Part shown: one piece after another, positions 3,115-28,455 of the stretch
How the letters are laid out: the number at the start of each line of letters is the position of its first letter
Numbering within the stretch: the first letter of the stretch is position 1
Origin: a virus
Virus record (IMG/VR): IMGVR_UViG_3300037042_003348
Span: 3,965-67,964 of that record
Length of the DNA stretch: 64,000 nt
Strand: one strand, 5' to 3'
The notes under the pieces: generated by a model
Seen by the model: only the letters and a program-made list of their open reading frames with translations
Database searches by the model: none
What the model was told of the DNA's origin: nothing
Program-made: the position numbers and the translations under genes

Positions 3115-3123
3115 GGTATTGCA

Positions 3124-6100
3124 ATGAGTGACTTTCTTGAAATGTTCAAAGCAGAGAAGGCCAAGAGAACTGCTGAAAAGGCGAAGGAGAACTCCGCAAA
3201 TCGCAGTGAGCTCGAGAGAGGCTGGGATCGTGGTGTTGCTGGCATGAAGTCCAGTTTTGCTGGCGCTGGGGCTATAGGTTCGACTCTGCTCGGAGACGAG
3301 GAAGGAGCACAGCAGTATATTGACTCGTACCAAGAATACGAACGACAAGCTTCAGAAAACCCAGCCACTGTGGATAAGTTTTTTTCAACTGATCCAAAAA
3401 GTGGTGCTTTTGGAAGCGTTAGTAATTTTGCAGGATACACAGGAGGCTTAATAGGTTCTACGGGACCGTCGTTAATAGAGTCGGCGGGGGCGTCGATTGG
3501 CGGAGCGATGATAGGAGGAGCACTTGTTCCTGCGCCAGATCCAGCAGACGTTGCCACAGTACCGATTGGTGCAGCTGCAGGCTTCTTTGGCAAGAAGTAT
3601 GTCAAGAAGCTTATCGCTGACAAAGTAGAGCAATACGTTAAGGACGGTATTGCTAAAGATGCTGCCGAAAGAATGGCAAATCAAGCTGTCAAAAAAAATC
3701 TTGCTGCGAAAGCTGGAGCTGGACTTGCAAGCTCGCAGGCCACAGCTGTGCCAGCAAGTGGACAAATGTACGGGAAGGGAAGGAAAGATGGATATGACAA
3801 TCCTTATAGTGCTTTAGCTCTTGGTCAGTTGTCCGGTCTTTCGGAAGCTGTGCTTGGTTCTGTTCCTGGAGCTGTTATGAGCTTTATCGGTAAATCTGCC
3901 GCTAAAGACGTTGCAAAGGAATTTGGGTTAAAGGAAGCTGCTGGTTACGTTTACGATTTAGTGACGGCTGCTCCTAAGGCGGGTGCAAAAGAAGGTATTC
4001 AAGAAGCCTTTCAAGCTTCTCTTGAAAGTGTCAACGAAACTATCAATGATCCCAAGAAGAAGTTGTTCACTCGCGAGAACTTCATGAACTGGGCGGAAGC
4101 TTTTGCTGGCGGTGCTTTTATTGGTGGTTTGATTGGTAGTGGATCAACAACATACAAAGCCGCGAGCGATACTAAGTCTGCAATACAGGCTAGGCGAGCT
4201 CAGTTAGAAAAAGCTCGCACTAAGGGATGGGTTTCAAAACCTGAGGCTGCTGAACTGGGTATTGCTGGCGAGAACCGCCCAGACCGTAAGGCTGATCTTG
4301 AAAGACAACTGGAAGAAGTAAAGGCAGCTGAAGCGCAAGCAATTGCAGCCGAGGAGGAAGCGAAGGCTGCAGAAGAACAAGGAGAGACTCCTCCTGGCTT
4401 ATTGGTTGGTCGAGGACGATCAGGTGGCGGTGTTAGCCAATCACCACCTTCTTTGCCGCCACAAGCTACACCTCCTGCTGTAGTGGCCCCCACGACAGAC
4501 CAACAAGTACCTCCAACCACCCCACCCGCGACTCTTCCTTCGCAACCGCAGCAACTCCAGCAGCAACCACAAGTACAACCTGACGATATTTTATCAAGAG
4601 ACCCGACAGATGGAGATATGACGCCTGAGGAGTACGAAGCTTGGAAGCGTGCAAAGGCAGCTAGGGATGCGGCCTCTCAGTCACAATCACCGCAACAGCA
4701 GCCTCCTGTACCACCAGCGGTTACACCAACTGCACCACCAACTGCACCACCAGTACCTCCATCAGGCATGACACCTGAAGAACAAGAGGCGTTTGAGAGG
4801 GCAAGTGTAGATGAAGAACAGTCTGCTGCTCAGTCGCAAACGCCACCACCACCGACTGCTGAAACGCCCCCATCTGCGCCACGCAAGGAGCGTTCTGTAC
4901 GAAAGGACCGGCTAGTCGCTTCGCCTGAATCGGAGCCCGCTCCTTCAGCAACGTCGCAAAGAAGCCAGCCGGAATCCGAGCAGGCTGCTGTTGCTGAAAC
5001 ACCAGAAGCTGAGCAAGTATCTGATACTACGCCTCCGTCGTCGTCTAGCCGAGCGGCTGCACCACAAGATCCTTCGCGACCTACAACCCAAAGCGAAGAG
5101 TCGACTGAGACACCCGCAACTTCCTATGAGCCATCAGAAGCCGAGATAACAGATGAGCTTACGAAAAGATTCGCTGGGAAGGTGGAACGCCCAGGAGTTC
5201 CTTTGCATGGCGTGCAAAGGGGTGTCGCTCGCCGAAGCGTGATAGGCAAGAAGTACGTGAGTGAAGGATTAGCTGACCTGGAAAAGGAAATGACGGGCGC
5301 TGGTTTCAATGAGGGTAGCACGGTCGCAATGATTCAAGGGTTGGCCGACCCTTGGACAATGAATCCAGAAGGCAATGTGGACGAAAAGACAGGAAAGGCC
5401 ATCCCAGGAGGCTTGCAAGACGAATCAGGCCGTTCTTTAGAAACAGGTGTGAAGCTCGGCGAGAAGCTGTGGAATCAGCATTTCTCAGAGATGGAAGCAC
5501 TTGGGATAGGGACAAAGATTGACGCCAACACCAAGCAATCTGTTCTGAACAAAGCTTGGGCATCAAAGGGTAAGCAAGGGTTGGTTCGTATCGGAAAGAT
5601 GCAGGGCGGAAAGTTTGTTGAGGATAAAGAGAGGACTGCAAAAGCCAGGAAGGTAATCGAGGACGCATTCCGATTTAGCCACGGAAAACCACTCGAGACA
5701 TCGAAGCAAGCACCAAGCAAGCCCACAACACCATCGAAGCCATCCAGACCTGCTGTTACGCCTGTGGCATCATCTGTAGTAGCTCCAGTGACAAGCACAC
5801 CTGTAGCATTGCCAGCTGATCCTGTGGGAAAAACTACTACTTCTTCCCCACAAGCATCGCCACCACCGCTTCCAAAGACTGCCACGCCACCACCTCTGCC
5901 ATCCAACCAGGGAACCCGATCGCCGATCGATCCTGCGTCTATTCCGGCACCTGTCTCTCGCGTGCAGCTTGATGCAGTCCCTGAGAACGAGATCTATTCT
6001 CGAAAGGGCAGTGACGACAAAGTTCGTTACCTTGTCAAGGATAGCGAAGGCATGGACTCGATATACGACACTATCGAGGAAGCACAGGAAGAGTCAGAGC

Positions 6101-9100
6101 GAAAGAAGAGCACTAAGGCCGAAAGCAAGGCCAAGCAAGAACCAAAGTCTTCTGGCGCGGTGTCAGAAGAGTCTCAACGTGACGAGGAGGCGAAAGATGC
6201 TCCAAAGACCAAGAAGGGAGGTGATTCTAATGAAGTCCAAGCCAAAGAGCGGCAGCAAGGGCAAACCAATGCCGATGCCGATGCCAAAGCCGAAGCCGAA
6301 GGGCAAGTAGGTGATAAGGGAGCCCAGGCGGCGGATAAAACTCCGTCGCCTGGATCTTCTTCTGTTGACAGTACCAAAACCCCAAGTACAAGCGAACCAA
6401 AAGCTCCACCGAAGCGATTGTCTGAGTGGGAACAGGGTGTGATGGAACTGCTTAATACCATCACCGCGTTCAAGGGTGCGTCGTTTGAATTGAGCGAGGC
6501 CGATCAGACGGTCAAGGTCACTCGACCAGACGGGCTTTCAACAAAAATCCATTTTGGTGCTGACGAGTTGCTAGATAGAATTGCTAAGCGAAGAGGCGAA
6601 CCGCAATGGAATGGTGCGTACATCTTCAAGAGCGGACGGCCTGAAGACGGGAACATTTACCTTCGATCAGATACAGACCACACCTACGTTCTTAACCACG
6701 AGGTTGTGCATTGGCTCGAAGACGCTGGTATCATCACGCCAGCAGAAGTTAAGAAGTATGGTGGTCGAGAAGGACTCGCTGAAGCTTATGGTGAATGGGC
6801 AGCAACTAGAGCAAGACCTGAGAACACGCTGTTTGAGAAGATCTATGACTTCTTTGAGCAGATCTTTGACCTTGACGCAAGGTTTTTCAAGAAGCTGAAC
6901 GAAAGGGTCGACTCGACCAAGGGCGAAGCTAAAGCACCGACGCAAAAAACAACGTCTACCAAGGTAGACAAAAAGACTCCCGCTCCTGATGTTGACGCTA
7001 AGAGCGAAACCAAGGCGGAAACTGCCAAGCAGACTGCTGCTAAGGATCTTTTTGATGGCTACGACTTACCTCGGCTGCAAGAGCTTGTTAGCCGTCTAGG
7101 CGAGGCAGGCGTCGATATAAAAGCAACCGACCGAGATGGCATCATAAAAGAGCTTGTCGGGATGCCTAAGGTTATGGCTCTCCTGGAACAGCGATTGCCC
7201 AAGCCAAAGCCTAAAGCAAAGTCCAAGCCACCTAAGTCGCCAACACAGCGACCAAAGCCCGCACCGGCAGGGTACGTTCCGCAACAAATTGGTGATGCGA
7301 CTGTGGTGGAACCAGAAACCAAAGTTGAAAAGCAACAGGAAAAGATCCTGAATGACATGGGTGTCACCCTTAGGGTTTTTGTTGGCGGCAGTAGAAATAT
7401 CCCTGGTTATTACGATGGCACGAATAATACGATTTGGCTTAATCGTGCCTACATAGCTTTTATGGATGAAAAATGGAAAAGAGAGGGAAAGCCAGATAAT
7501 TCAATGGCATGGGGGCTCTTCATGCACGAGGGGCTCCACGCGATCCGTGACAAATACCCAAAGACCTGGAAGAAGCTTTACGAATGGGTTAATGCTCGCG
7601 ACGAGGCTGGTTTGATAGAGGCTGGAGAAAATTACGTCTCGGACTTTACGAGTGTTCGTGATGAAGGCGGACCAGAAGCAGCTTTCGCTGATCAGTACCT
7701 AGAAAGGCTAAAAATCGACGAAGCTTTAATGCAGGACGAGCAGCTATCAAGATACATAGAGGATAGGGCCGGTACATTTGAATTTTGGAACGAACTCGGT
7801 AAGAGCGAGCCAGGGATCTTAGCAAAGATCGGTCAGTGGTTTCGCAAAGCATTGCGGTTTGCTGAGCCCAGCACGACTGATCCAGACACGCTAGCTGGTC
7901 AAGTGCGACTTGCTATCGAGTCTGCGATGAAGGAGAACGGAATTGAAACTTCAGGCAGTCGTGCATCGCCAGCAAGGACAGACTCATCATCCGTAAAAAA
8001 GAAAAAGAGCAGTTCTGGAGTTGAAAATGAGCGTAAGGCTCGCACATTAGACGAAGTGCGATCTCGCGTGGCAAAAGACTACGATCTAACAGTATCCTCT
8101 GAGCCAATACAGATGATCGATGGGCGGTCGTTCTCTTCGCTTGATCCTGACGTAGTAGGCACTGGCTTGCTTGTTCAAGATGCAGATGCTGCCATGCAAC
8201 GCATGATGACTGAGTCGTTGCAGGAAGCTGGGGTTCCTGAAGAAATCGCATCAACTGTAAAAGCGCCTTCTAGTGCAGAAGTGGATTACGCATTTCGTCT
8301 AACGGATGGTTCTCGCTACTGGTATGAGTTGTCTGCTACAGGTTTTGTAAAAGACTTTTTTGGCTTAAGCCGCAAGCTGACAGAACGCTTAATTGACATT
8401 GTTGCCGGAACCTCTGGAGGGCAGAAGCCAACAGACAACTTAAGAGTTGCTGTGGCATCTATGGCTCAAGACATGCAAGGCAGGCCAGTATCCGTTGGAA
8501 CTAGAGATGAATCGTCGCTAACTGCTGCTCTTTCTCCTGCTATGCTAGAGACCCACAAGTTTGGGAACTTTTCTGATACTATGCAGGTGCTCGGCGGATT
8601 GCGTCCTGGCGTCAAGCCATTGCCAACAATCGACTTGCAAATGGCTAAGGTGTTTGGTGTTCAGCATGCTGCAATCGCCAGTGATCCTCGCATGTATGAG
8701 GCAATGTCACGCTTCTTGATCAAACTACGAGACGCACAGAACGCCATGCTTAAAAATGGTGAGCAGCCGTATGAGTCTTGGCAGATTCAGGCTCTGCTTT
8801 GGGTTGCCCAGCGTGACACCAGCGATCCTGACTCCTTTAATATCGGGATGCCTAAAATAGTTGCTCAGCTAAAAAAAGCTGGAATCCCAACACCAGGAGG
8901 AAAAATCACTGAAGAGACATTGATGGATCCACGCACGTCTGATGTGCTTGCTCCAACGTCAAAAATTATTCCCGAGTCGTATACTGCTACGATAGGGACG
9001 TGGAACAACCTGACAAAAGTTGGCAAGGAGTCTGCTGAAGTTCTTGAGGAACTAAAGGCAATTGACGCTCCGTGGGCCAGAAAAATGGTTGATGAGTTTG

Positions 9101-12100
9101 AGAAGATTCAGCGGCGTACCATGCGTGCTTTTGGTAATCGTCGTCCGCCAAAGCCAGGGAATAAAACACGCCAGAAAAGCGTGGCTTCTTGGTTATTATC
9201 CGTAATCATGAACAAGTCTCCAAACTCGCACGAGCTGTCGCGGGTTGACACAGACGCATGGGGCACGTTTGAGGGTGCTGCCAGTCCTAACATCAGGTTC
9301 CCGCTCAATCTGGGTGCTGTTGGCGACACCGAGGAGGGTGGTGGAACCAAGCGATACGTGCCAACAAAAGATCATCGAGAGCAGTTCTTGTCTGTCTTGG
9401 GAAAATACCTCAAGCAGGAATCGCAAGCTGCGAGTCAGTTTATTCCGGCCGATCTCGGATCGCATGATACGTTCTCTATTCTTGTCCGGCGGTATGACAA
9501 GGTTGGTATCACCGAGTCCGAATTGGAGGAGATTAGTGACGGCCTTGGTCGCCCTATCAGCTATAAGCAAGTACCCAACGGATGGCAGCTGGACATCAAC
9601 ATAAGAGGATTTGATAAGACGGAGGGGCAAAAGGCGGAGAGTAGTGATGTGCAACGCATCCACGATGTAATGCAAAAATTCGCTTTGAAAGGGGCAGTTA
9701 GATACGATGTCCTTCCAAGATTGTACGAATCTAGCTACATTAAAAAGTCTGATTACAACAAACACATAAGGAACCTAGAGAATGAAATTCGGAAAAATTC
9801 TGACACCGGAGGAAGCGGAGAGGCTTTGGGGTATACCGAGGACGGGGGAGCTAGTGATTATGCCGCAGTTGTCGAGCAAATCAAAGGCATCGCAACAAAG
9901 CAAGAATCAGCCTTCAGGAAGTGGACAAAAGATGCAAGAGAGCGCGTCGCAAAGCGAAAAGTCCAATTTGGCGATCAACAAGGACCAGACTCAGGACAAA
10001 GATATTCCCCAGGACGACGATCCGAACCGGCCGGAGACGGAAGAGGACGCGATCAGAGCAGAAAGTATTCGCCGCTTGAAGGCGCACCATCAAGCCAAGG
10101 GGCGACAGGGCCAGACCCGAGGTTAGTTGATGTTGCTGAGAAGTACGCACGCGAAAACGGCATCGATCTCAAGCGACAAGCCGAATACGTTAAGGTAGAC
10201 GAGGATAGGGCTAAGCGGATCTCTAAAGCGTATGAGGATATGCCTCACGACCCGCAAGATCCAAAAGTTAAAGAAGCGTACCAAGAATTAGCCAAGCAAA
10301 CCAAAGCTCAATATGATGCTTTGGTGGCGGACGGATACACGTTCACGTTTTACGACAACGAATCTGATCCCTACGCTGGCAATCCAATGAATGCCATGCG
10401 TGACTTGCGACAAAACAAGTCAATGGCGGTTTATGGTACGTCTGCTGGCTTTGGTACTAAGGGCGTCACTAGTGGTTATGTTGACGACAACCCATTACTT
10501 GTAGACACAGGCGTGCGATGGAAAGACCAGAATGAAGTAGAACGCCCAGTTAATGCCGTTGAGCTCTTTCGTGCGGTTCATGATACGTTTGGGCATGGTT
10601 TAGAGGGATCTGGCTTCCGAGCTCGAGGCGAAGAAAATGCTTGGCAAGCTCACGTCCGGCTATTTACCGGCTCCGCTATAGGTGCTATGACCACTGGGAC
10701 TCGCGGACAAAACTCTTGGCTCAACTTTGGACCATACGGAGAAAAAAACAAGACTGCAAAGGTTGAAGATACAATCTTTGCGGATCAAAAGACTGGCTTG
10801 ATGCCCGAGTGGACCTGGACGGAAGGGCGTGCTGCAGATTATGATTCTAGTCGAGCATCTGTTGGAAGAAGAGACATTCCACAGCCACCTTCAATAATTG
10901 CAAAAGTTCTTTCTGAAAAATCCGATGCGGATGTGCTGAAGGAGTACACGCAAAAATGGAAGGGTGCACCAAACCGTGGTCCGTTTTTGCGTGTGATTCG
11001 TGGTCAAGTTCCAACGCAACAAGACAGCATTGCGGTGTGGGAGGATGATCGGGCCGCAAGGTTGTTGCTTGACGAGATCGACGGATCGCCAGAGATAAAC
11101 CGAGTACTTTACAGAGGTACAACAGCCACTGAGCTTGATCGATTTGTTGCTGACTCTGAGGTGCGTGAACTTCCAAGGGGGTTCTCTACCGATAAGAAAA
11201 TTGCAAGGAAGTTCAGCGACGGTGGTGTAATTGTTGTCGAACAGGGAGCTCGTGGAGTATCTGTTGGAGGGAAGTATGAAAGCGAAGTAATATCGCGGGG
11301 GCCGTTTGAGATCATTTCAGATAAAACGGAATCTGGGTCTCGTGTTTTGAGAGTCCGGCAACTAAACTATTCAGACACCACAAACAAGGAGATTGATGAT
11401 GGTACAACCAGACAAGAAACAGGAAGATCGCAAGACGACGGTAGCCGAGCAGCAGCCGGACGAAGCGGAAAAGAAGCAACCGCCGCCATCAGGAGTCGTA
11501 TTGGACCTAATGGAAGAGCTTGGAGTCGATCGCAAAACAGCCGAACGGTGGGCGGATATGGCGTAGTCGCCAGCTACAAGTCCGATTCTCCTGAGTGGAA
11601 CGAGGTTGGGGTTGCTACTCCTAATTTTGTAGAGCTGCAGAAGTCAGGGAAATCTGCAGCTCAGTTTGCCTCGGCCATCAATGCAGCGCGTGAAAGCCAA
11701 GGAAAACTTGGCGCGTCTGTCTACGTCTACCCTGAAGAAGACTATCGCGACATGCGACTGTTCCTAACCGAAGACGGTAAAGCTGGTTTTGCTTTGAAGG
11801 ACAGCGGCGAGGTTGGCGTATCTGACATTGTCTCGGTGTTTAACACAGCCAATAACGCACATCGTGGTGTCAGTTATTCGATGATACGTCTTGCTGTAGA
11901 AGAGGGCGGAAACACGCTTGACGCATTTGATACGTTTCTGCCTGTTCTTTATAGCGTAAATGGCTTTAAGGTAATTTCTCGTACTAAGTGGAACGGCGAG
12001 TTTGCTCCAGATGGCTGGAGCAAGGAAGAGTATTTAGATTTTAATAACGGTGAGCCGGATGTGGTCTTTATGGCTTACGATCCAAAGCGAACCGACATCT

Positions 12101-15100
12101 ATCGCCACGGCAGTGGCGAAGGTAAAGTTTTTGATGACTACGACGAAGCAGTCGAGTCGCAGCGATTGGCAGCTTTGAACTATTTAGAAACAGCAAACGA
12201 GGAGATTGATGATGGCGGTAAGAAACGAGACGGAAGAAGAGCAGCGGTCACCAGAGGAGATCTACGCGACGATTCAGAACAAGATCGACCAGGAATGGGG
12301 TCAAACTCTGGGTCAACCCCAAGCTACGGGCGAGCTAAAGAAGGAGCCGTCAGCTACGTCGGAAGGCACTACTCAAAGGAAGCTCGAGAGTCGCTAGATG
12401 TTAAGTTCCGTGGTACTGGAATCCCTGGTGCTGAAAATAGAAGGCTGCGTGGGACAGATGATGATCGCATAAAGAAACGCATCTACTTTTACATCGACAC
12501 TGCCGGAGAAATCAAGCCAGAGATGGGTGTTGGTAGCTTTGCTCACGAGGTTAAGCTAGACAATCTTTACGATCCAGATTCGAAACTCATCGAGTACCCT
12601 GGCGATCCTAATAAGTTTGAGTCAGCTATCGTTGACGCAGGTTACGACGGCTACATCTCGAAGTCCTTTGGTATGGCCGTTCTTCTCGGCCCCCAGCACA
12701 CTAACGTCCCTGTGCGTCGTGCGAAAGAATATGAAAAAGGTCAAGGCGATCGTTACTCCCCAGTTCGCCAAGCAAAGAGAAAGCGTGATCCCGAGGTCAC
12801 GAAAGCTGCGCAAGATCTGAAGGCTGGTCTAATCGATCGTGATCAGTATCAGAGGATCGTGGACATGAGAATGCCTCTCCGCAAGTTTGATGAGGTGCCG
12901 ATTCCAGCAAGCAAGGAAGATATGCTTCGCGGATTGGGCAAACGCAAAGCTGGTGAGCGACTCAAGAGAGATCTAATTCAAAATCCTGAAGACATCGCCA
13001 AAGGAACATTGCTTGAAGCCCGACTGGACATTCCTGCCTACGATGAAGAAAACGTCTGGATAGTCTCTTTGCATGAACCTCGCTCAGACCTGAATAAGGG
13101 AAGTGCCGGTCGAGTTGTCGCCTATACTCCGACATCTGTATTGAGAAATGTTACTTTCGGGGTCACCGAAACAGCCGCTCTGAATATCGCCGCTGGCAAG
13201 CCCAAGTCCACAATAGCTACCATGCGAGGCGAGTATGTGCCGATGACGGCAAAGCAAGCCTATGAGCTCGCAGAGACCAATAAGGATCAGTGGGTTGAGA
13301 TTGGGATGAATCCCGTACGCCACACTTACTTCTACGATAAAAATACGCAGGCTCCAGTGGAGTCGGCAGAAGAAGTAGTGCAAGTAGGCGGCATGGTGTT
13401 GGCTAAGAATCCTGTGCTGGGAAAACGAGAGAACTATCGTTACTCCCCTAGCCGTAAGGACGACTTGCTGGATTGGCTAATCCAGAACCTTGAAGAGCAG
13501 GGCGTAATCAAGCCAGAGAAGACGCCAGATCCGAAGCCTACTGGCACGAAGTACGCAAGGACTGAAGGACAGCGAACATTTGTTGGTGACTCGCCTAGAG
13601 AATCGTATGGCCCTCGTAAAGTCGAAGAGAGGCAACAGAAGGCGATCGCTGAGCTTGCTGCCAATCCAGGTCGTCCTTACGAGATCATCGCGCAGATGGA
13701 CGCGAAGCCAGCACCGTTGACGGACATGGAAGATGCGATCCTCAACGCTCGCATCAGGCAACTGAAGAATGATGGCGACATCCAGGGATCCGACAGGAAG
13801 GAATGGCTCGATCTTAATCGCACTGTTCAGCGAGGACATTCTGAATGGGGCTACGCAGGCCATGCAGCACAGGCTGAACTGGCGGATGACTTCTCGGTTG
13901 AAGGATTGACACGCAGACACACGGATCACGTTGGAGAAGATCCTAAGTCTGAAAAACTGGCAACGTATGCAGATCTTGCTGATCGCATCGACAAGATGGA
14001 AACGGAGAAGGCTGACCTTATTGAGAAGCTTGCGCAAGAAGCGATTGCTCGTCAGAAGGCCGAAGAGAACCAGAAGCCACCTCCTAAGGAGAAAATTGGG
14101 ACGAAGCGAGCTACCTTGATGAAAAAGGTTGCTGATGGCTTTGCTGCATTCCAGAACGCCTGGAGTGGTGGTACGACTGGCCGACCTGCAGTTGCTCGTC
14201 AAGCTGAGTCGTCTGCTTTCAAGAAGTGGTTTGGCAACAGTAAGGTAGTCGACGACAACGGCGATCCGTTGGTTATGTACCACGGAACAGACAAAGACTT
14301 CAATGTGTTTGAAAACCGTGGCGGTAAGGTCTCGGTCTTGTTCTCCACGTTTGATGTTGATCGCAAGGGGTTTTTCTTCGCTAAGGATAAGGGTCTTTCC
14401 CTTGAGTACGGCAGCAAGCTTGTGCCAGTCTATTTGTCGATTCAGAAGCCAGCTAACTTCCTTGACAGTAAGGAATGGCCAAAGATCAAGGAAGGTCTTG
14501 TTGAGAGAGGGTGGAATGAAAGATATCTCGATCGAACTGATGCTTGGGAGCTGTTTGATGTAGATGAGTCGAACGATGGTGCTAAGCTCATTAAAGACCT
14601 AAAGTCGATGGGTTACGATGGAGCAATCATCGAAGAGCCATCATGGCAAGATGAGAACGGCGAATATGGTGTGTCTCACGTTGCGTTTGATAACACCCAG
14701 ATTAAGTCCGCCACTGGTAACGTCGGCACATTCGACGCAACAAACCCAGACATCCGCTACTCCCCAAGTCGGCAAGAACCTGATATTAAGGCTGCGGCTG
14801 CTAGCATCGTTGCAACATTGCGTGAGATGGGCGTGAGTTCCGAGTTGGAGCTCGAGTCTCAGGTTAATGCGAACATGCCAAATGTTACACCCGAGCAGAT
14901 GCAGGTGATTAAGGAAGCATGGGACGAAAGCGTCAAGAAGACCAAGCTTGAGTCTCCTTTGGGTGACAATCCAGATCAGGCAGAAATTGGTGCTCGAGCA
15001 AAGGAGCTGATGAAGCTTGCGATCGAGGCTGGTCATGGAGCCACACCAGGTACATGGCAAGAAGTCGTTGATGTTGTGCATGCACAGTTGTCAATCGAAG

Positions 15101-18090
15101 TCCCTGGTATCTTCGAATATGACACTATGCAAGCCATGTCGGATTACGGCGAATGGACGGCATTGCAGCGTGGTGATGTGGTTGACAAAATCAGAGCCAT
15201 TCGTGGCAAGGTCAGACAGACACTAAAGATCGAGGACACACTTGATGCTATTCAGCAAGCTAAAGAATGGCTTGAGAATGGCGTCAGTCCTGAAGAGGTG
15301 TCACGACGGCTGGTTGAAGAAGGTCGACTTCCAAAATCAACAGGTCGTGAGCAGGCGACACCTGACAGTATTGAGCGTGACTTGATCGCTGAGTTCAACA
15401 AGCTTAAGAAGGGATTGCCGGTATCTGCAGAGTCTCGAGAAGGACAACTGAAGACTGCATTAAGCACAGCCAAGACAGCTGGCCGAAACAGGCTCGAGTT
15501 GCTGGACAAGGATATTGAACTGCTTGAAGAAGCAGTCGCTAAACGTACAGCGATAGTGAAGTCTGTTGATGAGCGGACCCCGTTAAAGCCAGATACCGAA
15601 CTGGCTGAGATCAGAAAGAAGCTAGAGGACAAGAGGAAGCGAAGAGACGAGCTTAAGGCTGAGTATGAGACGATATTCCCACCAACCAAGAAACAGCGAC
15701 TAGAAACAGCTGAGGCGCAGACAGAGCGAGCTCGAGAGTCGATCAAAAGACTGCAAGATAAGTTGCGTCAACTCAAGGAAGGTAAAGACATAAGCCCAAC
15801 GCGACAGCCTGATCTTTTGCCGAACGAAATCCGAACTGAGCTCAAGATGTGGCAGGAGCGGTTCAAGGCCGCTAAGCAGGCCGCAAAAGAAGCCAATGAG
15901 GCACAGTACGAAGGCGAGGGAGGTGCCTTACTTCCTCCATCCGGCCGCAAGCAGCTTACTGAGGCTCAGAAGCTGAAGGCGTCTGAGAGAATGCTGCGAG
16001 AGCAGATTGACGCAATCAAGGCTGACATCAAGGCACTCGAGAACGGCACATGGGCTCCAGCTAGTTTGGCTGCAACTACGCCAACTTCAGAGCTCAAGAC
16101 TGCTTTGAAGGCCGAGCTTGATGCCTTGAGGGCTGTTCGTAAGAAGGCTCAAGAGGCTAGCCCTGCGTACCAAGCCAACCAGGAACGAAAGTATTGGGAG
16201 CGATACCGCAAAGGTCAGGAAAAGCGTCTGGCGTTCTGGGAGAAGCGTCGTGTCGAAGCGGCTGGCGGAATACTTCCTGTTCCACGCAAGAAGCGTACGA
16301 TTACAGAGGAAGCCATCCTCGACAAGAACTTGGAGATCGAGAAGCTTAAGTACGAAGCCATGTACGAGATCGAGAAGGCGAAACGTGCAACCTGGAACGC
16401 AGGTCAATGGATTGGTTATGGGCTGCTCGAGGCGACATCGTTAATACCGAAGACATTGATGCTCGGTATGGAAATGTCTTTCGTTCTTAGGCAAGGGTTC
16501 TTCTACTTGAGATCGCATCCAATCAAGGCATTCATGGCTGTGGTCGAGTCGATGCCTGCAGTGTGGAGTCAGCGATATGCTTTAGCTTCTGTCGACAGGC
16601 TTGAAAGTCGTCCGAACGCTAAGGAATATCTGCAAGGCGGTGTGGAGTTCACTAAGAAGGATGGCCCACAAGCGAAACTGGAAGAGATGTATCAGTCAGC
16701 TGTTATTCGCTGGCTCGAGAACACGAAGACTCCATGGCTGTTCCCGTTTCGTAAGTGGGTAGCTGCCTACGGGGCTTTCGAACGAGGCAACCGGACTTTT
16801 GCCAACATTATGAAAGCTGACTTGTACGACATTCAAAAGCGTGACACGTTAGCTGCGCGTGAGCTCTTCAAGGTTAGTACCGAATGGACCGAGGATGACG
16901 TTAAGGAGACTGGCAGGATAACAAACATCTTCAGCGGGCGAGGAACCGGTCTCAAGGGTGGAAACCCATGGCTCGACTTCTTCTTCTTAGCTAGGCGATG
17001 GACGTGGTCTAGGATCCAGGCTGATTTTATTGTGCCATTCCAGTTAGCGACTCCGCAATGGCTAGGCCAATGGAATGCCGATCGCGGGATGCGAGTGTCG
17101 CTGGCTAAGCTGTACATTCAAACTCTTATGGGTCACGCTACGAAAATAGCCATGGGTCATTTCATCTACTCACTTCTTGCTGGTGATGATGAAGAAAAGA
17201 AGCCTACCTGGGAATGGGACACTCGGTCTAGTGACGCATGGGCTACTAAGGTTGGCGAGACGCGATTCAAGGATGATGGTGGCTTGATGCCAGCTATCGT
17301 TTTAGCTTCGCGGCTGCTGACTGGAACAATGAAGACGGCCGATGGCGAGATCAAGTCGATCTATGGAGAGGATGTTAACTATGGAGGCAAGGCTGCATCA
17401 GACTTCATAATCGATTTTGCTAGATACAAGATGGGTACTGGACCTGCAGGTATCATGGAGTGGTTTTCTGGAAAGGATGCTGTCGGAAGGAACATAGCAA
17501 AGAAGGATGATCCAACGGCAGTGTATAGACATATTGTGTGGTCTCGTGTTAAGCCGTTAACATGGGGCGAAATAGCTTCAGCCGAGAAGGAGCTAGGAGT
17601 CGCAACTGGAACGCTTGCATCGCTCGAGGCGTTGTTTGGTACGTCTGTTTCGACTTACGGCGACCGGACTACTTACCGAAATGCTAATGAAAAAGACAGG
17701 GAGGACCAGATCAAGACGGATCTCAGGGGAATGAAGTGGGACTCGCCAGATCCTGCGTACGAAGAGTTCTTAAACGCCGACCAGAAAGAAGCGTTCCGGC
17801 TGCGACGTGAAGAGCGGAAGGGAGCTTTGATGGCAGAAGCCTTCACTGATCCTAAGCTGGAGAACTTCAAGGATCAGGAAGGTTTCGACAAAGCTGTCGA
17901 AAGTCGTGACGAGGCTCTCAAGGAAGTTATTGGGGCTGGCATGACCTACGAGGATATTCAGACCCAGCTCATCGAATACTGGAAGCAAAACCATGGTTCA
18001 GCGTACGAACGCAAAGGAAATGGCTGGGTTTTGAAAGCCGCGATCGTTAACCGATTGCGAGTGGCTAGGGACGCACTTGAAGAAAAATAG
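3124..18090 (+). CDS. Giant (4988 aa) polyvalent virion/ejection protein: two zincin HExxH motifs, several ADP-ribosyltransferase-like domains, GNAT-like and glycosylase-like domains
   Basis: HEVVH (6697) and HEGLH (7525); R-S-E ART 'LYRG..FSTD..ESEV' (~11100-11290); polyvalent-type ART 'FKKWFGNSKVVDDNGDPLVMYHGT' (~14220); GNAT-like 'LDAFDTFLPVLYSVNGF'; Ala/Gly-rich N-terminus typical of ejection proteins. Confidence 0.8.
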   Translation: MSDFLEMFKAEKAKRTAEKAKENSANRSELERGWDRGVAGMKSSFAGAGAIGSTLLGDEEGAQQYIDSYQEYERQASENPATVDKFFSTDPKSGAFGSVSNFAGYTGGLIGSTGPSLIESAGASIGGAMIGGALVPAPDPADVATVPIGAAAGFFGKKYVKKLIADKVEQYVKDGIAKDAAERMANQAVKKNLAAKAGAGLASSQATAVPASGQMYGKGRKDGYDNPYSALALGQLSGLSEAVLGSVPGAVMSFIGKSAAKDVAKEFGLKEAAGYVYDLVTAAPKAGAKEGIQEAFQASLESVNETINDPKKKLFTRENFMNWAEAFAGGAFIGGLIGSGSTTYKAASDTKSAIQARRAQLEKARTKGWVSKPEAAELGIAGENRPDRKADLERQLEEVKAAEAQAIAAEEEAKAAEEQGETPPGLLVGRGRSGGGVSQSPPSLPPQATPPAVVAPTTDQQVPPTTPPATLPSQPQQLQQQPQVQPDDILSRDPTDGDMTPEEYEAWKRAKAARDAASQSQSPQQQPPVPPAVTPTAPPTAPPVPPSGMTPEEQEAFERASVDEEQSAAQSQTPPPPTAETPPSAPRKERSVRKDRLVASPESEPAPSATSQRSQPESEQAAVAETPEAEQVSDTTPPSSSSRAAAPQDPSRPTTQSEESTETPATSYEPSEAEITDELTKRFAGKVERPGVPLHGVQRGVARRSVIGKKYVSEGLADLEKEMTGAGFNEGSTVAMIQGLADPWTMNPEGNVDEKTGKAIPGGLQDESGRSLETGVKLGEKLWNQHFSEMEALGIGTKIDANTKQSVLNKAWASKGKQGLVRIGKMQGGKFVEDKERTAKARKVIEDAFRFSHGKPLETSKQAPSKPTTPSKPSRPAVTPVASSVVAPVTSTPVALPADPVGKTTTSSPQASPPPLPKTATPPPLPSNQGTRSPIDPASIPAPVSRVQLDAVPENEIYSRKGSDDKVRYLVKDSEGMDSIYDTIEEAQEESERKKSTKAESKAKQEPKSSGAVSEESQRDEEAKDAPKTKKGGDSNEVQAKERQQGQTNADADAKAEAEGQVGDKGAQAADKTPSPGSSSVDSTKTPSTSEPKAPPKRLSEWEQGVMELLNTITAFKGASFELSEADQTVKVTRPDGLSTKIHFGADELLDRIAKRRGEPQWNGAYIFKSGRPEDGNIYLRSDTDHTYVLNHEVVHWLEDAGIITPAEVKKYGGREGLAEAYGEWAATRARPENTLFEKIYDFFEQIFDLDARFFKKLNERVDSTKGEAKAPTQKTTSTKVDKKTPAPDVDAKSETKAETAKQTAAKDLFDGYDLPRLQELVSRLGEAGVDIKATDRDGIIKELVGMPKVMALLEQRLPKPKPKAKSKPPKSPTQRPKPAPAGYVPQQIGDATVVEPETKVEKQQEKILNDMGVTLRVFVGGSRNIPGYYDGTNNTIWLNRAYIAFMDEKWKREGKPDNSMAWGLFMHEGLHAIRDKYPKTWKKLYEWVNARDEAGLIEAGENYVSDFTSVRDEGGPEAAFADQYLERLKIDEALMQDEQLSRYIEDRAGTFEFWNELGKSEPGILAKIGQWFRKALRFAEPSTTDPDTLAGQVRLAIESAMKENGIETSGSRASPARTDSSSVKKKKSSSGVENERKARTLDEVRSRVAKDYDLTVSSEPIQMIDGRSFSSLDPDVVGTGLLVQDADAAMQRMMTESLQEAGVPEEIASTVKAPSSAEVDYAFRLTDGSRYWYELSATGFVKDFFGLSRKLTERLIDIVAGTSGGQKPTDNLRVAVASMAQDMQGRPVSVGTRDESSLTAALSPAMLETHKFGNFSDTMQVLGGLRPGVKPLPTIDLQMAKVFGVQHAAIASDPRMYEAMSRFLIKLRDAQNAMLKNGEQPYESWQIQALLWVAQRDTSDPDSFNIGMPKIVAQLKKAGIPTPGGKITEETLMDPRTSDVLAPTSKIIPESYTATIGTWNNLTKVGKESAEVLEELKAIDAPWARKMVDEFEKIQRRTMRAFGNRRPPKPGNKTRQKSVASWLLSVIMNKSPNSHELSRVDTDAWGTFEGAASPNIRFPLNLGAVGDTEEGGGTKRYVPTKDHREQFLSVLGKYLKQESQAASQFIPADLGSHDTFSILVRRYDKVGITESELEEISDGLGRPISYKQVPNGWQLDINIRGFDKTEGQKAESSDVQRIHDVMQKFALKGAVRYDVLPRLYESSYIKKSDYNKHIRNLENEIRKNSDTGGSGEALGYTEDGGASDYAAVVEQIKGIATKQESAFRKWTKDARERVAKRKVQFGDQQGPDSGQRYSPGRRSEPAGDGRGRDQSRKYSPLEGAPSSQGATGPDPRLVDVAEKYARENGIDLKRQAEYVKVDEDRAKRISKAYEDMPHDPQDPKVKEAYQELAKQTKAQYDALVADGYTFTFYDNESDPYAGNPMNAMRDLRQNKSMAVYGTSAGFGTKGVTSGYVDDNPLLVDTGVRWKDQNEVERPVNAVELFRAVHDTFGHGLEGSGFRARGEENAWQAHVRLFTGSAIGAMTTGTRGQNSWLNFGPYGEKNKTAKVEDTIFADQKTGLMPEWTWTEGRAADYDSSRASVGRRDIPQPPSIIAKVLSEKSDADVLKEYTQKWKGAPNRGPFLRVIRGQVPTQQDSIAVWEDDRAARLLLDEIDGSPEINRVLYRGTTATELDRFVADSEVRELPRGFSTDKKIARKFSDGGVIVVEQGARGVSVGGKYESEVISRGPFEIISDKTESGSRVLRVRQLNYSDTTNKEIDDGTTRQETGRSQDDGSRAAAGRSGKEATAAIRSRIGPNGRAWSRSQNSRTVGGYGVVASYKSDSPEWNEVGVATPNFVELQKSGKSAAQFASAINAARESQGKLGASVYVYPEEDYRDMRLFLTEDGKAGFALKDSGEVGVSDIVSVFNTANNAHRGVSYSMIRLAVEEGGNTLDAFDTFLPVLYSVNGFKVISRTKWNGEFAPDGWSKEEYLDFNNGEPDVVFMAYDPKRTDIYRHGSGEGKVFDDYDEAVESQRLAALNYLETANEEIDDGGKKRDGRRAAVTRGDLRDDSEQDRPGMGSNSGSTPSYGRAKEGAVSYVGRHYSKEARESLDVKFRGTGIPGAENRRLRGTDDDRIKKRIYFYIDTAGEIKPEMGVGSFAHEVKLDNLYDPDSKLIEYPGDPNKFESAIVDAGYDGYISKSFGMAVLLGPQHTNVPVRRAKEYEKGQGDRYSPVRQAKRKRDPEVTKAAQDLKAGLIDRDQYQRIVDMRMPLRKFDEVPIPASKEDMLRGLGKRKAGERLKRDLIQNPEDIAKGTLLEARLDIPAYDEENVWIVSLHEPRSDLNKGSAGRVVAYTPTSVLRNVTFGVTETAALNIAAGKPKSTIATMRGEYVPMTAKQAYELAETNKDQWVEIGMNPVRHTYFYDKNTQAPVESAEEVVQVGGMVLAKNPVLGKRENYRYSPSRKDDLLDWLIQNLEEQGVIKPEKTPDPKPTGTKYARTEGQRTFVGDSPRESYGPRKVEERQQKAIAELAANPGRPYEIIAQMDAKPAPLTDMEDAILNARIRQLKNDGDIQGSDRKEWLDLNRTVQRGHSEWGYAGHAAQAELADDFSVEGLTRRHTDHVGEDPKSEKLATYADLADRIDKMETEKADLIEKLAQEAIARQKAEENQKPPPKEKIGTKRATLMKKVADGFAAFQNAWSGGTTGRPAVARQAESSAFKKWFGNSKVVDDNGDPLVMYHGTDKDFNVFENRGGKVSVLFSTFDVDRKGFFFAKDKGLSLEYGSKLVPVYLSIQKPANFLDSKEWPKIKEGLVERGWNERYLDRTDAWELFDVDESNDGAKLIKDLKSMGYDGAIIEEPSWQDENGEYGVSHVAFDNTQIKSATGNVGTFDATNPDIRYSPSRQEPDIKAAAASIVATLREMGVSSELELESQVNANMPNVTPEQMQVIKEAWDESVKKTKLESPLGDNPDQAEIGARAKELMKLAIEAGHGATPGTWQEVVDVVHAQLSIEVPGIFEYDTMQAMSDYGEWTALQRGDVVDKIRAIRGKVRQTLKIEDTLDAIQQAKEWLENGVSPEEVSRRLVEEGRLPKSTGREQATPDSIERDLIAEFNKLKKGLPVSAESREGQLKTALSTAKTAGRNRLELLDKDIELLEEAVAKRTAIVKSVDERTPLKPDTELAEIRKKLEDKRKRRDELKAEYETIFPPTKKQRLETAEAQTERARESIKRLQDKLRQLKEGKDISPTRQPDLLPNEIRTELKMWQERFKAAKQAAKEANEAQYEGEGGALLPPSGRKQLTEAQKLKASERMLREQIDAIKADIKALENGTWAPASLAATTPTSELKTALKAELDALRAVRKKAQEASPAYQANQERKYWERYRKGQEKRLAFWEKRRVEAAGGILPVPRKKRTITEEAILDKNLEIEKLKYEAMYEIEKAKRATWNAGQWIGYGLLEATSLIPKTLMLGMEMSFVLRQGFFYLRSHPIKAFMAVVESMPAVWSQRYALASVDRLESRPNAKEYLQGGVEFTKKDGPQAKLEEMYQSAVIRWLENTKTPWLFPFRKWVAAYGAFERGNRTFANIMKADLYDIQKRDTLAARELFKVSTEWTEDDVKETGRITNIFSGRGTGLKGGNPWLDFFFLARRWTWSRIQADFIVPFQLATPQWLGQWNADRGMRVSLAKLYIQTLMGHATKIAMGHFIYSLLAGDDEEKKPTWEWDTRSSDAWATKVGETRFKDDGGLMPAIVLASRLLTGTMKTADGEIKSIYGEDVNYGGKAASDFIIDFARYKMGTGPAGIMEWFSGKDAVGRNIAKKDDPTAVYRHIVWSRVKPLTWGEIASAEKELGVATGTLASLEALFGTSVSTYGDRTTYRNANEKDREDQIKTDLRGMKWDSPDPAYEEFLNADQKEAFRLRREERKGALMAEAFTDPKLENFKDQEGFDKAVESRDEALKEVIGAGMTYEDIQTQLIEYWKQNHGSAYERKGNGWVLKAAIVNRLRVARDALEEK
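6230..6310 (+). CDS. Overprinted small basic peptide (26 aa, MKSKPKSGSKGKPMPMPMPKPKPKGK), +1 frame of the giant gene
   Basis: Strong SD GGAGGTGA 5 nt before ATG; Lys/Pro-rich composition like small basic phage peptides. Confidence 0.55.
   Translation: MKSKPKSGSKGKPMPMPMPKPKPKGK
9782..10126 (+). CDS. Overprinted small protein (114 aa), +1 frame of the giant gene
   Basis: AAGGA upstream; protein-like N-terminus (MKFGKILTPEEAERLWGIP..); spans the RYSPGR linker. Confidence 0.45.
   Translation: MKFGKILTPEEAERLWGIPRTGELVIMPQLSSKSKASQQSKNQPSGSGQKMQESASQSEKSNLAINKDQTQDKDIPQDDDPNRPETEEDAIRAESIRRLKAHHQAKGRQGQTRG
11396..11566 (+). CDS. Overprinted small protein (56 aa, ..LDLMEELGVDRKTAERWADMA), +1 frame
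   Basis: Start context AGGAGATTGATGATGG is identical to that of the stand-alone gene at 38889; follows the R-S-E ART domain. Confidence 0.55.
   Translation: MMVQPDKKQEDRKTTVAEQQPDEAEKKQPPPSGVVLDLMEELGVDRKTAERWADMA
12209..12397 (+). CDS. Overprinted small protein (62 aa), +1 frame
   Basis: Same AGGAGATTGATGATGG start context; amphipathic helix SPEEIYATIQNKIDQEW; follows the GNAT-like domain. Confidence 0.5.
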   Translation: MMAVRNETEEEQRSPEEIYATIQNKIDQEWGQTLGQPQATGELKKEPSATSEGTTQRKLESR

Positions 18091-21432: not shown

Positions 21433-22297
21433 AGTAAAGGTAAAGAATCTGCATCAGCGACTTGTTGAAGTCATGCGAACGATGGGTGCGGTTGGTAAGG
21501 GCGGGAAGACGAACTACGGCGATAAGTTCGAGTATCACCGCATTGACGATGTTGACGCAGCCTTGCGTGAAGCATTGGTTGAGCATGGTGTCGTGGCTTT
21601 GATGGTTAATGTTGGCGATCGCCAGTCTGAAAGGCATCTTGAAGTCGACAAGTACAACAATCCAAGAACGCTTTATCAGACCGAGTGCGTGGTCACGATC
21701 AGGTTCTTCAACGCTGACGACCCAGCAGACACGGTTGATATTGTTGGATGGGGGCAAGGTCTTGATTACCAGGACAAAGCCACAGGAAAAGCGATCTCGT
21801 ACGCAGCCAAGTCTGCTTATCTTTCATCGCTGCACCTGCGAGGCCAGCCTGATAATGAGGCTGATAACATTCCAGCTCCTGTCGTGAAGAATGCACCTGC
21901 GACAGTGCCGCCACCGGCGAAGCCAGCAGCTACAAAGCCAGCTGCACCAAAGCCGTCAGTGCAGATCCCTAAGAAGGTTGAGTTACCAGACTACGACAGT
22001 CTTCCACTGAAGGCGAGAGAGTGTGTTGACGGCATTCGAGGATCTGATGGAATAGAGAGTCTTTTGGCTCTTGTTCCTGGTTTCAAAGAAGAGACTCGTG
22101 AGGTTCAGAATCTTGTCAAACCCTACTTTGAAGAGCAGAAAAAGGTGCACTATGCGAACGACATCAGCCGATGCCAAGACATAGCTTCACTAAAGAAGCT
22201 CGGTGCGGAGATCTCTGCTGAAAAGAATGCAGATTTATTTGCCGCATTGAAGGGTTTGTACGCGGCACAAGATAGTGCTTTGAAAGCGAGTTCGTAA
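21425..22297 (+). CDS. erf: ERF-family single-strand annealing recombinase
   Basis: 'GQGLDYQDKATGKAISYAAKSAYL' ERF signature; paired with the exonuclease. Confidence 0.85.
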   Translation: MSEVKVKNLHQRLVEVMRTMGAVGKGGKTNYGDKFEYHRIDDVDAALREALVEHGVVALMVNVGDRQSERHLEVDKYNNPRTLYQTECVVTIRFFNADDPADTVDIVGWGQGLDYQDKATGKAISYAAKSAYLSSLHLRGQPDNEADNIPAPVVKNAPATVPPPAKPAATKPAAPKPSVQIPKKVELPDYDSLPLKARECVDGIRGSDGIESLLALVPGFKEETREVQNLVKPYFEEQKKVHYANDISRCQDIASLKKLGAEISAEKNADLFAALKGLYAAQDSALKASS

Positions 22298-22488
22298 TGA
22301 GTAAGCAAGTGTACATCGGGCCGCAAGGTCAAAAGGCCACTGTCCTGCGTGAGGACGAATCTAGCGTAACGTTGCTGATCGTAGTTAAGTACAGTGAGGA
22401 TCCACATCAATGGACTTCGACTCGACGCAACTTCGAATCGCGATGGAAGCCGTTTGTGAGCGAATGCGATGATGTCGCATCCGTATAG
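22297..22488 (+). CDS. Hypothetical protein
   Basis: TAATG coupling to erf. Confidence 0.55.
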   Translation: MSKQVYIGPQGQKATVLREDESSVTLLIVVKYSEDPHQWTSTRRNFESRWKPFVSECDDVASV

Positions 22489-22515
22489 TTTTGTTTTAGT
22501 AACTTTAATTGGAGA

Positions 22516-22878
22516 ATGAAGATGTCAGTAGAACGAGTAGCAGTTGTGCATGATGACGAGTTGGCAGCAATCAAGGACAGTCGGCAGCGAGATCTGCCGT
22601 TGTTCTCTTTGATCAGGCCGTTCGCCGTCTCGGCTGAAGAAGAGAAGCAGCCGTTGTGGATCGTGGCGGTGAGCGAGCACCAAGCAAACCTTGCCTTGGT
22701 AGATTACCTGTTCCCTATTGAGAAGTGTGCCAAGAAGGATCGCGACGAACGCTATACCGAGCTGCTCGAGCTTGCTGTGGGTGAGATCGCCAAGGATGAG
22801 GCTGCAGCAGATCAGGCAGCTGTCGACCTTCGTGGTGTGCTTGGCGAAGCCGTCAGTGATCTTGTTATTGGCGGCTGA
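22516..22878 (+). CDS. Hypothetical protein
   Basis: GGAG RBS; operon position. Confidence 0.55.
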   Translation: MKMSVERVAVVHDDELAAIKDSRQRDLPLFSLIRPFAVSAEEEKQPLWIVAVSEHQANLALVDYLFPIEKCAKKDRDERYTELLELAVGEIAKDEAAADQAAVDLRGVLGEAVSDLVIGG

Positions 22879-23074
22879 ACAGAAGAAGACTGCCCAGACT
22901 TTAAGTTCGTCGAGATTAGTCCTCGGCGAGCTGCTCGTGGCGCAAGGGCTGCGAGAATGGAAGTCGATGGAGAGTGGATGTGGATGTCGACGTTTGACCT
23001 TCACCTTAATGTTCGTGATTTTGGACCGCACCTAGAGCTGATTAAAGCATTGGGTGCCTACAAGCGAGGGTGAG

Positions 23075-23878: not shown

Positions 23879-23887
23879 GGTGGAAAC

Positions 23888-25517: not shown

Positions 25518-25539
25518 TATTGTTTTCAAAACAGGAGAA

Positions 25540-25848: not shown

Positions 25849-25857
25849 AGGCAAACT

Positions 25858-27622: not shown

Positions 27623-27636
27623 GTGGAGATTAGTTA

Positions 27637-28454: not shown

Positions 28455-28455
28455 C

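Follow-up and report, generated by a model that had tools for sequence, protein, structure and literature searches.

We analyzed a stretch of viral DNA of 64,000 nucleotides (nt), positions 3,965 to 67,964 of the IMG/VR record IMGVR_UViG_3300037042_003348 (hereafter, the window), with attention to short open reading frames (ORFs) nested inside its largest gene. The record, of 67,964 nt, is rated complete, and the window covers most of it. The largest gene, at 3124-18090, encodes a protein of 4988 amino acids (aa), in which Pfam detects ART-PolyVal (PF18760, residues 3710-3870, E=7.5e-23) and Phage_L5_gp82 (residues 3324-3419). Because of these two domains, we regard it as a polyvalent protein as defined by Iyer et al. 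2017 (PMC5512222). It combines many unrelated effector domains, among them ART-PolyVal and a GNAT fold, and its modules are reordered between relatives. Searching 50,697 deposited phage records by DNA similarity returned nothing related to the window; the relatives used here come from IMG/VR records and metagenome contigs. The closest of them, G001, encodes a 5168-aa homologue with a different domain order, and other relatives have open frames of more than 2000 codons. Judging from these sequences, modules have clearly been shuffled between genomes.

An earlier note on this DNA had listed four short ORFs in the +1 frame relative to the giant gene and had read them as a candidate set of nested immunity or antitoxin genes. 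All four ORFs lie where that note placed them (6230-6310, 9782-10126, 11393/11396-11566, and 12206/12209-12397), and all are +1 to 3124-18090. Each is a complete ORF on the same strand, wholly inside the larger ORF in another frame. We refer to them as ORF1 to ORF4, and the features needed for what follows are these:

3124-18090, + strand: main ORF, 4988-aa polyvalent (multi-domain) virion-type protein; the inter-domain linkers hold the nested ORFs.
11396-11566, + strand: ORF3, a 56-aa +1 nested ORF with alternative starts TTG at 11393 and ATG at 11399; the best-supported nested gene.
About 11489-11563, + strand: block C of ORF3, its conserved C-terminal part (VLDLMEELGVDRKTAERWADMA), ending 6 nt into the segment modelled as the GNAT domain.
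11560-12201, + strand: GNAT-fold acetyltransferase domain in the main frame, predicted partner of the ORF3 product.
9782-10126, + strand: ORF2, a 114-aa +1 nested ORF; probably a real gene.
9782-9867, + strand: block A of ORF2 (N-terminal, MKFGKILTPEEAERLWGIPRTGELVI), which follows module M1.
9997-10086, + strand: block B of ORF2 (C-terminal, DDPNRPETEEDAIRAESIRRL), which precedes domain X.
10108-10899, + strand: domain X (GPDP...HDxFGH...), always after block B; phrog_3170 (unknown function).
12209-12397, + strand: ORF4, a 62-aa +1 nested ORF after the GNAT domain and before the 'AVSYVGRHYS...' domain; a candidate gene, less well supported.
6230-6310, + strand: ORF1, a 26-aa +1 ORF, low-complexity and rich in K, P, and E; most likely a chance ORF.

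Each ORF is preceded by a motif resembling a Shine-Dalgarno (SD) sequence, as the earlier note had stated: gggaggtga before 6230, aagga before 9782, and aaggag or gaggag before 11396 and 12209. From the sequence alone, the arrangement is aagga-N9-ATG for ORF2 and AGGAG-N4/N7-ATG for ORF3 and ORF4. A strong SD (AGGAG/GGAGG) precedes 8 of the 141 +1-frame ATGs of the giant gene; because the picks of the note make up five of these eight sites, its SD criterion amounts to selection. Across the relatives, the first ATG has an SD-like 5-mer ahead of it in 6/11 lineages, compared to 8/82 first ATGs of the +1 stretches of the giant gene, which has 191 +1 open stretches with a mean length of 25 codons. 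Codon usage bears out the claim that the +1 frame is protein-like where the main frame is of low complexity. The stretches of ORF3, ORF4, and ORF2 rank 1, 2, and 3 among 39 by codon-usage score; at these stretches the main frame scores -0.08, -0.01, and 0.07 (gene-wide 0.47 +/- 0.16) and resembles a shadow frame. Pfam and PHROG scans of all +1 peptides assigned no family. The only sub-threshold Pfam match for ORF3 was UBA_HYPK (E=0.02), and a 113-aa TTG-start ORF at 5969-6310, which contains ORF1, gave sub-threshold matches only (HAT_Syf1_CNRKL1_C, E=0.02; BRINP, E=0.033).

The evidence is strongest for ORF3, which belongs to a family of +1 ORFs of 56 to 110 codons that stop at the same place just upstream of the GNAT-fold domain in 11 loci. 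Homologous ORFs with the same stop occur in G001, L010, L013 (=L011=L012), L014, L015/L020, and L026-L030, and more distant ones with the same end point occur in L016, L018, and L021, the last of these being the cultured Limnohabitans phage DC33 (PQ492659.1). The C-terminal pattern of L016 and L021/DC33 is similar to block C; the resemblance of L018 is loose, with only the end point in common. In all 11 loci block C lies directly before the GNAT domain, behind at least 6 different upstream neighbours. Summed over these loci, stops number 0 in the frame of the +1 ORF and 0 in the main frame; the next frame has 68, and the three antisense frames have 47, 15, and 14. The loci with an intact ORF span 41-82% identity in the GNAT domain. 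In G001, the +1 frame carries a 110-aa ORF that starts like ORF2 (MKF..LTPEEAE..WGIP..GELVI, block A) and ends like ORF3 (VLGLMEEYGVDRQTAEKWADMI-stop, block C). A profile of these block-C ORFs matched a clade outside the profile (P0007 and P0008) at E=2e-6 among 1.84 billion proteins, and all five of its small matches end at block C.

Further observations concern individual members or relatives of this family. The 144-aa database protein P0006 begins in the main frame of a polyvalent gene like that of L014, then changes to the +1 frame, in which it ends at the block-C stop; a sequencing indel may be the cause, or else a natural frame change or split variant. Gene 4 of Microbacterium phage UtzChips (L022), annotated as 'minor capsid protein', closes with a copy of the GNAT-like domain (47% identity). 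Its 47-codon +1 ORF (MALPITEEERLAFL...AAILTGW) stops about 30 codons before the domain core, in a GC-rich genome, and homology to block C is not evident. The taxonomy line of PQ492659.1 gives Inoviridae and the genome is circular, of 39 kb; the single coding sequence at 22242-31619 is odd for such an entry, being a giant gene of polyvalent type.

If the +1 frame is under selection, synonymous change in the main frame should be reduced where the two overlap, and in the ORF3 family the reduction is confined to the ORF. In the L014-L015 pair, an unbiased scan placed all 14 of the 346 scan windows with p<1e-3 at 1509-1733 and 1779-1913, on the +1 ORF at 1576-1899; two longer +1 open stretches gave no signal. 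Over the 1753 aligned codons of this pair, third positions changed in 18/109 cases inside the 107-codon +1 ORF and in 861/1644 outside it, with positions 1 and 2 unchanged in this comparison. The L026-L027 pair belongs to a different clade, and there the single low region among 348 scan windows (3018-3287) falls on the ORF at 3001/3022-3264 (12/71 synonymous changes inside versus 601/1049 outside, p=1.7e-11). Substitutions at the three positions number 16, 3, and 17, so that the position shared as main-frame 2 and +1 frame 1 barely changes (3/36). Between the window and L013, the sole low-synonymous region of 202 scan windows is 11458-11562, and synonymous change within ORF3 is 3/20, compared to 380/667 outside. 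For the ORFs of the window fixed a priori, main-frame synonymous change is roughly half the outside level. When the window is compared with G001, the only high-identity scan windows in which the +1 translation is better conserved than the main frame lie on blocks A, B, and C, and in these main-frame position 1 changes more than position 3.

For ORF2, the evidence from homologues is partial. The 113-aa protein P0002, encoded on other contigs, is 72% identical to ORF2 over its full length and has the same stop, and the aagga motif and ATG are kept in G001. Synonymous change is 17/69 inside versus 824/1712 outside between the window and G001 (p=1e-4), 9/27 versus 380/667 with L013, 14/63 versus 400/1082 with L032, and 13/46 versus 277/635 with L033; low-synonymous scan windows within the ORF lie at 9871-9960 and 9802-9891. 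Suppression over block B is strong among G001, L010, and L013. This block always directly precedes the GPDP...HDxFGH domain (domain X), in the five sequence copies examined (one each in the window, L010, and L013, and two in G001) and in L033. Two additional +1 ORFs in G001, one ahead of each copy of this domain, contain the latter half of ORF2 (DDPNRPETEED..., block B). Domain X has no Pfam match and no PDB sequence match, and its model (predicted local distance difference test [pLDDT] 59, poor) gave no fold match.

Block A follows module M1 and is joined to block B (window, P0002), block C (G001), or a third block (L032), depending on what follows. Some side observations bear on how these blocks are assembled. 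In L032 (3001-3375), block A opens a 124-aa +1 ORF that ends in a different conserved-looking block (PPDEELTEEYWEGIYGPEVAGTMVELGLITP) before another downstream domain. In G001 (L001:4300-6300), domain X and the preceding linker with its block-B ORF are tandemly duplicated, and the start contexts of both nested ORFs are identical. A +1 block with the pattern LAAV(E/T)SWM(A/E)EN(M/L)P(D/E)P (L010:1880-2060) is common to an ORF upstream of block B in L010 and one upstream of block C in P0003, which suggests that the +1 proteins are themselves mosaics of short blocks.

Evidence for ORF4 is weaker and remains suggestive only. G001 has a +1 ORF with the ORF4 blocks EE(I/M)..IQ..IDQ and KEPS.TSEGTT, synonymous change between the window and G001 is 7/32, compared to 824/1712 outside (p=0.004), and the codon score is the second best of the 39 +1 stretches; no scan window over ORF4 reached p<1e-3 in the unbiased scans. 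ORF1 could not be aligned to any relative, and it lies within the longest +1 open stretch (5807-6310), whose codon score of -0.42 is like that of noncoding sequence, so the proposal of a nested gene at this site finds no support. Conservation of the +1 ORF together with synonymous constraint in homologues, which the earlier note had put forward among the checks on its reading, is found for ORF3, in part for ORF2, and weakly for ORF4. The original observation holds in part: the features exist, the ORF statistics do not exceed chance, and comparative and codon evidence marks out three of the four ORFs.

The domain that follows block C is a GNAT-fold domain by several measures. Its AlphaFold2 model (pLDDT 84.4) has 77 matches in the PDB at E<=1e-3, with GNAT acetyltransferases filling the top places; it belongs to phrog_2563 (E=5e-13), and stand-alone 'acetyltransferase' genes in Streptomyces phages match it at 31-35% identity. 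Of the labels that had been given to the domains preceding the nested ORFs, this one therefore holds, through the model and its fold matches; 'glycosylase-like' and 'R-S-E ART' gained no Pfam match at E<=0.1. We co-folded the 56-aa ORF3 product (alignment of 7 sequences) with the GNAT domain (alignment of 8), as had been proposed for each peptide and its adjacent domain, and the pair scored 0.76, compared to 0.01 for the best of three controls. The mark applied is reached by 58/80 solved complexes and 2/110 mismatched pairs, counts that are rough here because our own alignments were used. The runs share at least 76% of contacts, with a partner pLDDT of at least 59. Contacts predicted on the peptide (residues 32-38, 41-42, 44, and 50-56) correspond to the conserved block C, and those on the domain include residues 93-106 (strand end, loop, and helix start) and helix 126-133. 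This beta4/P-loop/alpha4 region is presumably the acetyl-CoA-binding region, as is general for GNAT enzymes. PDB sequence searches with the GNAT, domain-X, and peptide profiles found nothing significant; because neither chain has a sequence relative in the PDB, the result is unlikely to derive from sequence memory, and fold-level memory of GNAT toxin-antitoxin complexes may be its source. The models thus predict that the ORF3 product binds a face of the GNAT domain encoded after it.

The starts of ORF3 and ORF4 lie in a repeated 16-mer, AGGAGATTGATGATGG, which occurs exactly three times in the window (at 11387, 12200, and 38880), as had been noted before. The chance expectation is 0.02, and 0/100 shuffles reached three copies:

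11387-11402, + strand: copy 1 (AGGAGATTGATGATGG), comprising the SD and the ATG ATG of ORF3; main frame KEIDDG, the end of the preceding module.
12200-12215, + strand: copy 2, comprising the SD and the ATG ATG of ORF4; main frame EEIDDG.
38880-38895, + strand: copy 3, preceding the free-standing 91-aa candidate ORF 38889-39164.

Similarity between the two internal copies continues for about 22 nt upstream (LNYSDTTNKEIDDG / LNYLETANEEIDDG). Because these additional nucleotides and the main-frame (K/E)EIDDG are common to both, the internal 16-mers are also part of a repeated module-end motif. The copy at 38880 has no similarity to the others beyond the 16 nt. It had been taken as the start of a stand-alone gene at 38889; the 16-mer is indeed there, and the ORF itself has no PHROG family and no relative in four related virus records. 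A related junction, CAAACAAGGAAATAGGCGATG, opens both block-B ORFs of G001, and the junction/TIR pattern was not found in G002-G004. We set aside a prfB-like +1 shift at the SD-bearing 16-mer, as the main frame has no stop there, and dropped a candidate tRNA before 38880, as ARAGORN gives only a tRNA-Trp at 43376-43449. That tRNA-Trp (cca) is the sole ARAGORN tRNA in 36000-46000, despite T-loop-like strings near 38836 and 42940.

By conservation, synonymous suppression, and codon usage, then, ORF2, ORF3, and probably ORF4 behave like real overprinted genes. The linker DNA would be read twice, with the main frame supplying a hydrophilic linker and N-terminal extension and the +1 frame a short protein, which would be translated from its own SD-ATG inside the long mRNA of the giant gene. 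The association of these short proteins with domains is the reverse of the polarity that had been suggested, in which an inhibitor gene follows its toxin domain. The +1 blocks go with the domain downstream, whatever lies upstream, as block C does in 11 loci and as block B does also; what follows the GNAT domain varies with the next domain, and an immunity gene directly after the toxin domain is not the arrangement found. Each conserved +1 block therefore appears to be evolutionarily tied to the enzymatic domain that follows it, both moving together when modules are shuffled.

The two-helix block at the C terminus of the ORF3 product, predicted to sit on the GNAT face formed by the beta4/P-loop/alpha4 region, suggests what this association might serve. 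We infer that the small protein would be made beside the giant protein in the infected cell, where it would bind its domain and keep it inactive, or folded and quiet, until packaging. It would then be left out of the virion, and the effector would act only after injection into the next host. Such an inhibitory ('safety catch') or immunity role is inferred. The idea that each module carries its own inhibitor or chaperone fits the predicted binding of the ORF3 product to the adjacent domain; no known antitoxin domain (RHH/DUF1778 or other) was detected. The interpretation in the earlier note is thus partly supported: nested genes are likely, a binding role is predicted for ORF3, and the polarity is reversed. 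For the whole of this account, comprising overprinted linker genes that are tied to the next domain and hold it inactive until packaging, we lean slightly towards acceptance, and we regard it as the best explanation.

Several results weigh against this account. The giant gene has 13 +1 ORFs of at least 57 aa, compared to 14.8 +/- 2.8 expected from 500 synonymous shuffles, and its longest is 119 aa, compared to 158 +/- 40 in these shuffles; whether codons are swapped synonymously or their order is permuted, the shuffled genes contain no fewer +1 ORFs, and longer ones. Between genomes, the +1 ORFs differ in their starts and N-terminal parts, with no clear SD in L013, L016, and L022, and protein-database searches turned up no free-standing copy of any +1 peptide. 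The stand-alone GNAT relatives Lika gp75, Alpheus CDS0014, and HATV-2 gp117 have no small gene like block C upstream. The substitution counts inside the L014-L015 ORF (19, 10, and 18) also fit a neutral linker that was recently homogenised (chi-square p ~0.2), tests between the window and L010 are not significant (p 0.11-0.13), and phase tests on whole a-priori ORFs are modest (p 0.03-0.3). Suppression over block B is absent in the L033-L013 (14/28 versus 288/514) and L033-G001 (10/31 versus 234/581) pairs. In ORF4, synonymous change between the window and L013 is 7/14, compared to 380/667 outside, and substitutions are nearly equal at the three codon positions. A simulation that takes the main-frame alignment as given shows over-conservation of the +2 frame (z 2.2-4.6) as well as of the +1 frame (z 3.2-6.5), so the two are not separable by this frame-specific simulation. 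Because the +2 frame is also more conserved than simulated, part of the conservation signal is plain nucleotide conservation. The placement of the predicted contacts at the acetyl-CoA site comes from general knowledge of GNAT enzymes rather than from a ligand-bound model.

The nucleotide conservation could mean that the linkers are maintained as recombination junctions, mRNA structures, or internal ribosome-loading sites, the open +1 frame being a by-product of purine-rich composition. The excess in the +2 frame over a simulation of the main frame only would fit such an element, as would the clear shuffling of modules between genomes, the recurrence of junction sequences where different modules meet (twice in the window for the 16-mer, twice in G001 for CAAACAAGGAAATAGGCGATG), and other low-synonymous regions without a consistently open alternative frame (13036-13245 and parts of 8377-9180). 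It does not predict, however, that, in two independent clades, the suppressed regions have the same limits as the +1 ORF, that the most constrained position is the one shared as main-frame 2 and +1 frame 1, or that, besides the main frame, the +1 frame alone is open in all 11 loci while the four others have 14-68 stops. The conserved stop position, the gene-like codon usage that the +1 frame has and the main frame loses, and the pass of the +1 product in the controlled co-fold through its conserved block also argue against it, and we consider it unlikely. Chance is a less credible source still. A long gene of such composition has many +1 ORFs, their number and length here are at expectation, and picks that favour SD-like purine runs, as the SD criterion did in selecting five of the eight strong sites of the gene, would be drawn to some of them. 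The unbiased scans and the stop counts contradict chance for ORF3, and the comparative evidence for ORF2 and the 1-2-3 ranking of these ORFs by codon score among 39 stretches speak against it more broadly; it stands for ORF1, which is unalignable and has a noncoding-like score. As an account of the set, we hold it to be highly improbable.

The small ORFs might also be relics of captured two-gene cassettes, in which read-through in another frame joined a small gene and an enzyme gene to the giant ORF and the small gene is no longer translated. The +1 blocks do travel with the downstream domain as a cassette would, and main-frame codon usage in these spans looks like that of a shadow frame. A dead relic should, however, gain +1 stops and lose synonymous constraint, whereas the ORF is intact in 11 loci at 41-82% GNAT-domain identity and constraint is strong in recent pairs. 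No free-standing ancestor of the cassette was found: the small proteins upstream of HATV-2 gp117 and Alpheus CDS0014 do not have the block-C pattern, and Lika gp75 has none upstream. We find this history improbable. Another origin for a conserved block C and stop with variable starts and N-terminal parts would be a frameshift or split, some ribosomes slipping from the main into the +1 frame in the linker, stopping at the conserved stop, and releasing isoforms that end in block C. P0006 runs through just these frames, although a sequencing indel may account for it. Block A opens with a conserved ATG that lies, in both genomes, 2-5 codons downstream of +1 stops, which precludes entry from far upstream, and SD-ATG pairs are enriched; no slippery site is evident, though no search for slippery motifs was made. 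That block C goes with the downstream domain is also hard to square with a C-terminal tail of the upstream product, and we consider slippage very improbable.

Overprinted linker genes of the kind favored here have precedents among phages. Same-strand nested genes include lambda Rz1 inside Rz and, in phiX174, B in A and E in D. As in these, a complete small +1 ORF lies in a larger gene on the same strand, with its own SD-ATG and a putative functional tie to the host gene. The present case differs in that several nested ORFs occupy the linkers of one giant multi-domain gene, are tied to the next domain, and are reshuffled with it, and in that the small protein is predicted to partner with a domain of the very protein whose gene hosts it, as known here from sequence and models. 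Polymorphic toxin-immunity cassettes, of which Zhang et al. 2012 reportedly gave an account, are said to pair modular toxin domains each with a small cognate protective protein, the pairs being mobile as units. Here, too, a modular domain and a small putative cognate partner move as units. Polymorphic-toxin immunity genes are separate and follow the toxin domain, whereas the small ORF here lies ahead of its domain, in a different frame of the host gene.

The type II systems KacAT and TacAT, which combine a GNAT toxin with an RHH (DUF1778) antitoxin, offer another comparison. In KacAT, the C-terminal helices of the antitoxin wrap the GNAT toxin and impair acetyl-CoA binding (PMC6698736). In both cases, the coding sequence of a small protein comes immediately before that of a GNAT-fold enzyme, and in our models the C-terminal two-helix block of the ORF3 product is predicted to lie on the corresponding GNAT face. 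Unlike those antitoxins, the ORF3 peptide has no RHH/DUF1778 domain by Pfam or PHROG, for which reason it is not a member of the KacAT antitoxin family, and a PDB sequence search detected no relation. Its gene is not a separate upstream cistron but overlaps the linker of a fused polyprotein in another frame, and the setting is a virion effector rather than a chromosomal addiction module; the domain has the GNAT fold, and it may or may not be toxic or acetylate tRNA.

Polyvalent proteins of phages and conjugative elements carry many effector domains per polypeptide (Iyer et al. 2017, PMC5512222), and the giant gene of the window is typical of them, with many effector domains including ART-PolyVal and two HExxH motifs. 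The terms 'overlapping', 'linker', and 'frameshift' have 0 occurrences in the main text of that paper, and to that extent nested linker genes are not part of the published description of polyvalent proteins (PMC5512222). A full-text literature search, within the texts it could reach, found no description of nested genes in polyvalent-protein linkers, nor of a phage inhibitor overprinted on the gene of its target.

Other features of the giant gene are recorded here separately. A main-frame motif, R(Y/A)SP(G/S/V)R, stands at nearly every domain junction in the window and G001 (e.g., 9990-10080, 12870-12900, 13480-13500, and 14800-14830), and the two HExxH motifs (LNHEVVHWLED and FMHEGLHAIRD) lie earlier in the protein of the window. 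The sequence pattern suggests that the junction motif could be a candidate processing site for an internal metallopeptidase. Main-frame synonymous change is low at 13036-13245 of the window relative to G001, L032, and L033 (p down to 2e-6); this segment sits in a part of the main protein that is 95% conserved, and none of the alternative frames stays open in all four genomes. The conserved module M1 (8377-9180) has low-synonymous stretches at 8881-9000 and 9076-9180 (versus G001) and at 8377-8841 (versus L032), in which all three codon positions are quiet, so that recent exchange or another element is possible.

A broader proposal, which we put forward tentatively and consider doubtful, is that polyvalent linkers are a general dual-coding device. 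Each effector domain would move together with a cognate small inhibitor encoded in the +1 frame of its own N-terminal linker. Made from internal SD-ATG sites on the giant mRNA, the inhibitors would keep all domains inactive in the producing cell and stay out of the particle at packaging, so that the virion would bring in an armed multi-enzyme warhead. As the +1 ORFs are modular, with block A joined to B, C, or another block according to the next domain, module shuffling would automatically rebuild matching inhibitors. Should the +1 ORFs be translated, giant effector genes of phages would conceal a further layer of genes missed by standard gene callers, and the linkers of polyvalent proteins would be coding sequence for partner proteins rather than mere spacers. 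Inhibitors encoded in cis would explain how self-harming enzymes such as ADP-ribosyltransferases and acetyltransferases can be synthesized late without harm to the phage's own production, and each partner peptide would mark the functional face of its domain, giving a handle on domains of unknown function. The arrangement is present in a cultured phage, Limnohabitans phage DC33, which makes the question directly testable, and it would provide a clear case in nature of dual coding maintained over long times, selection acting on both frames.

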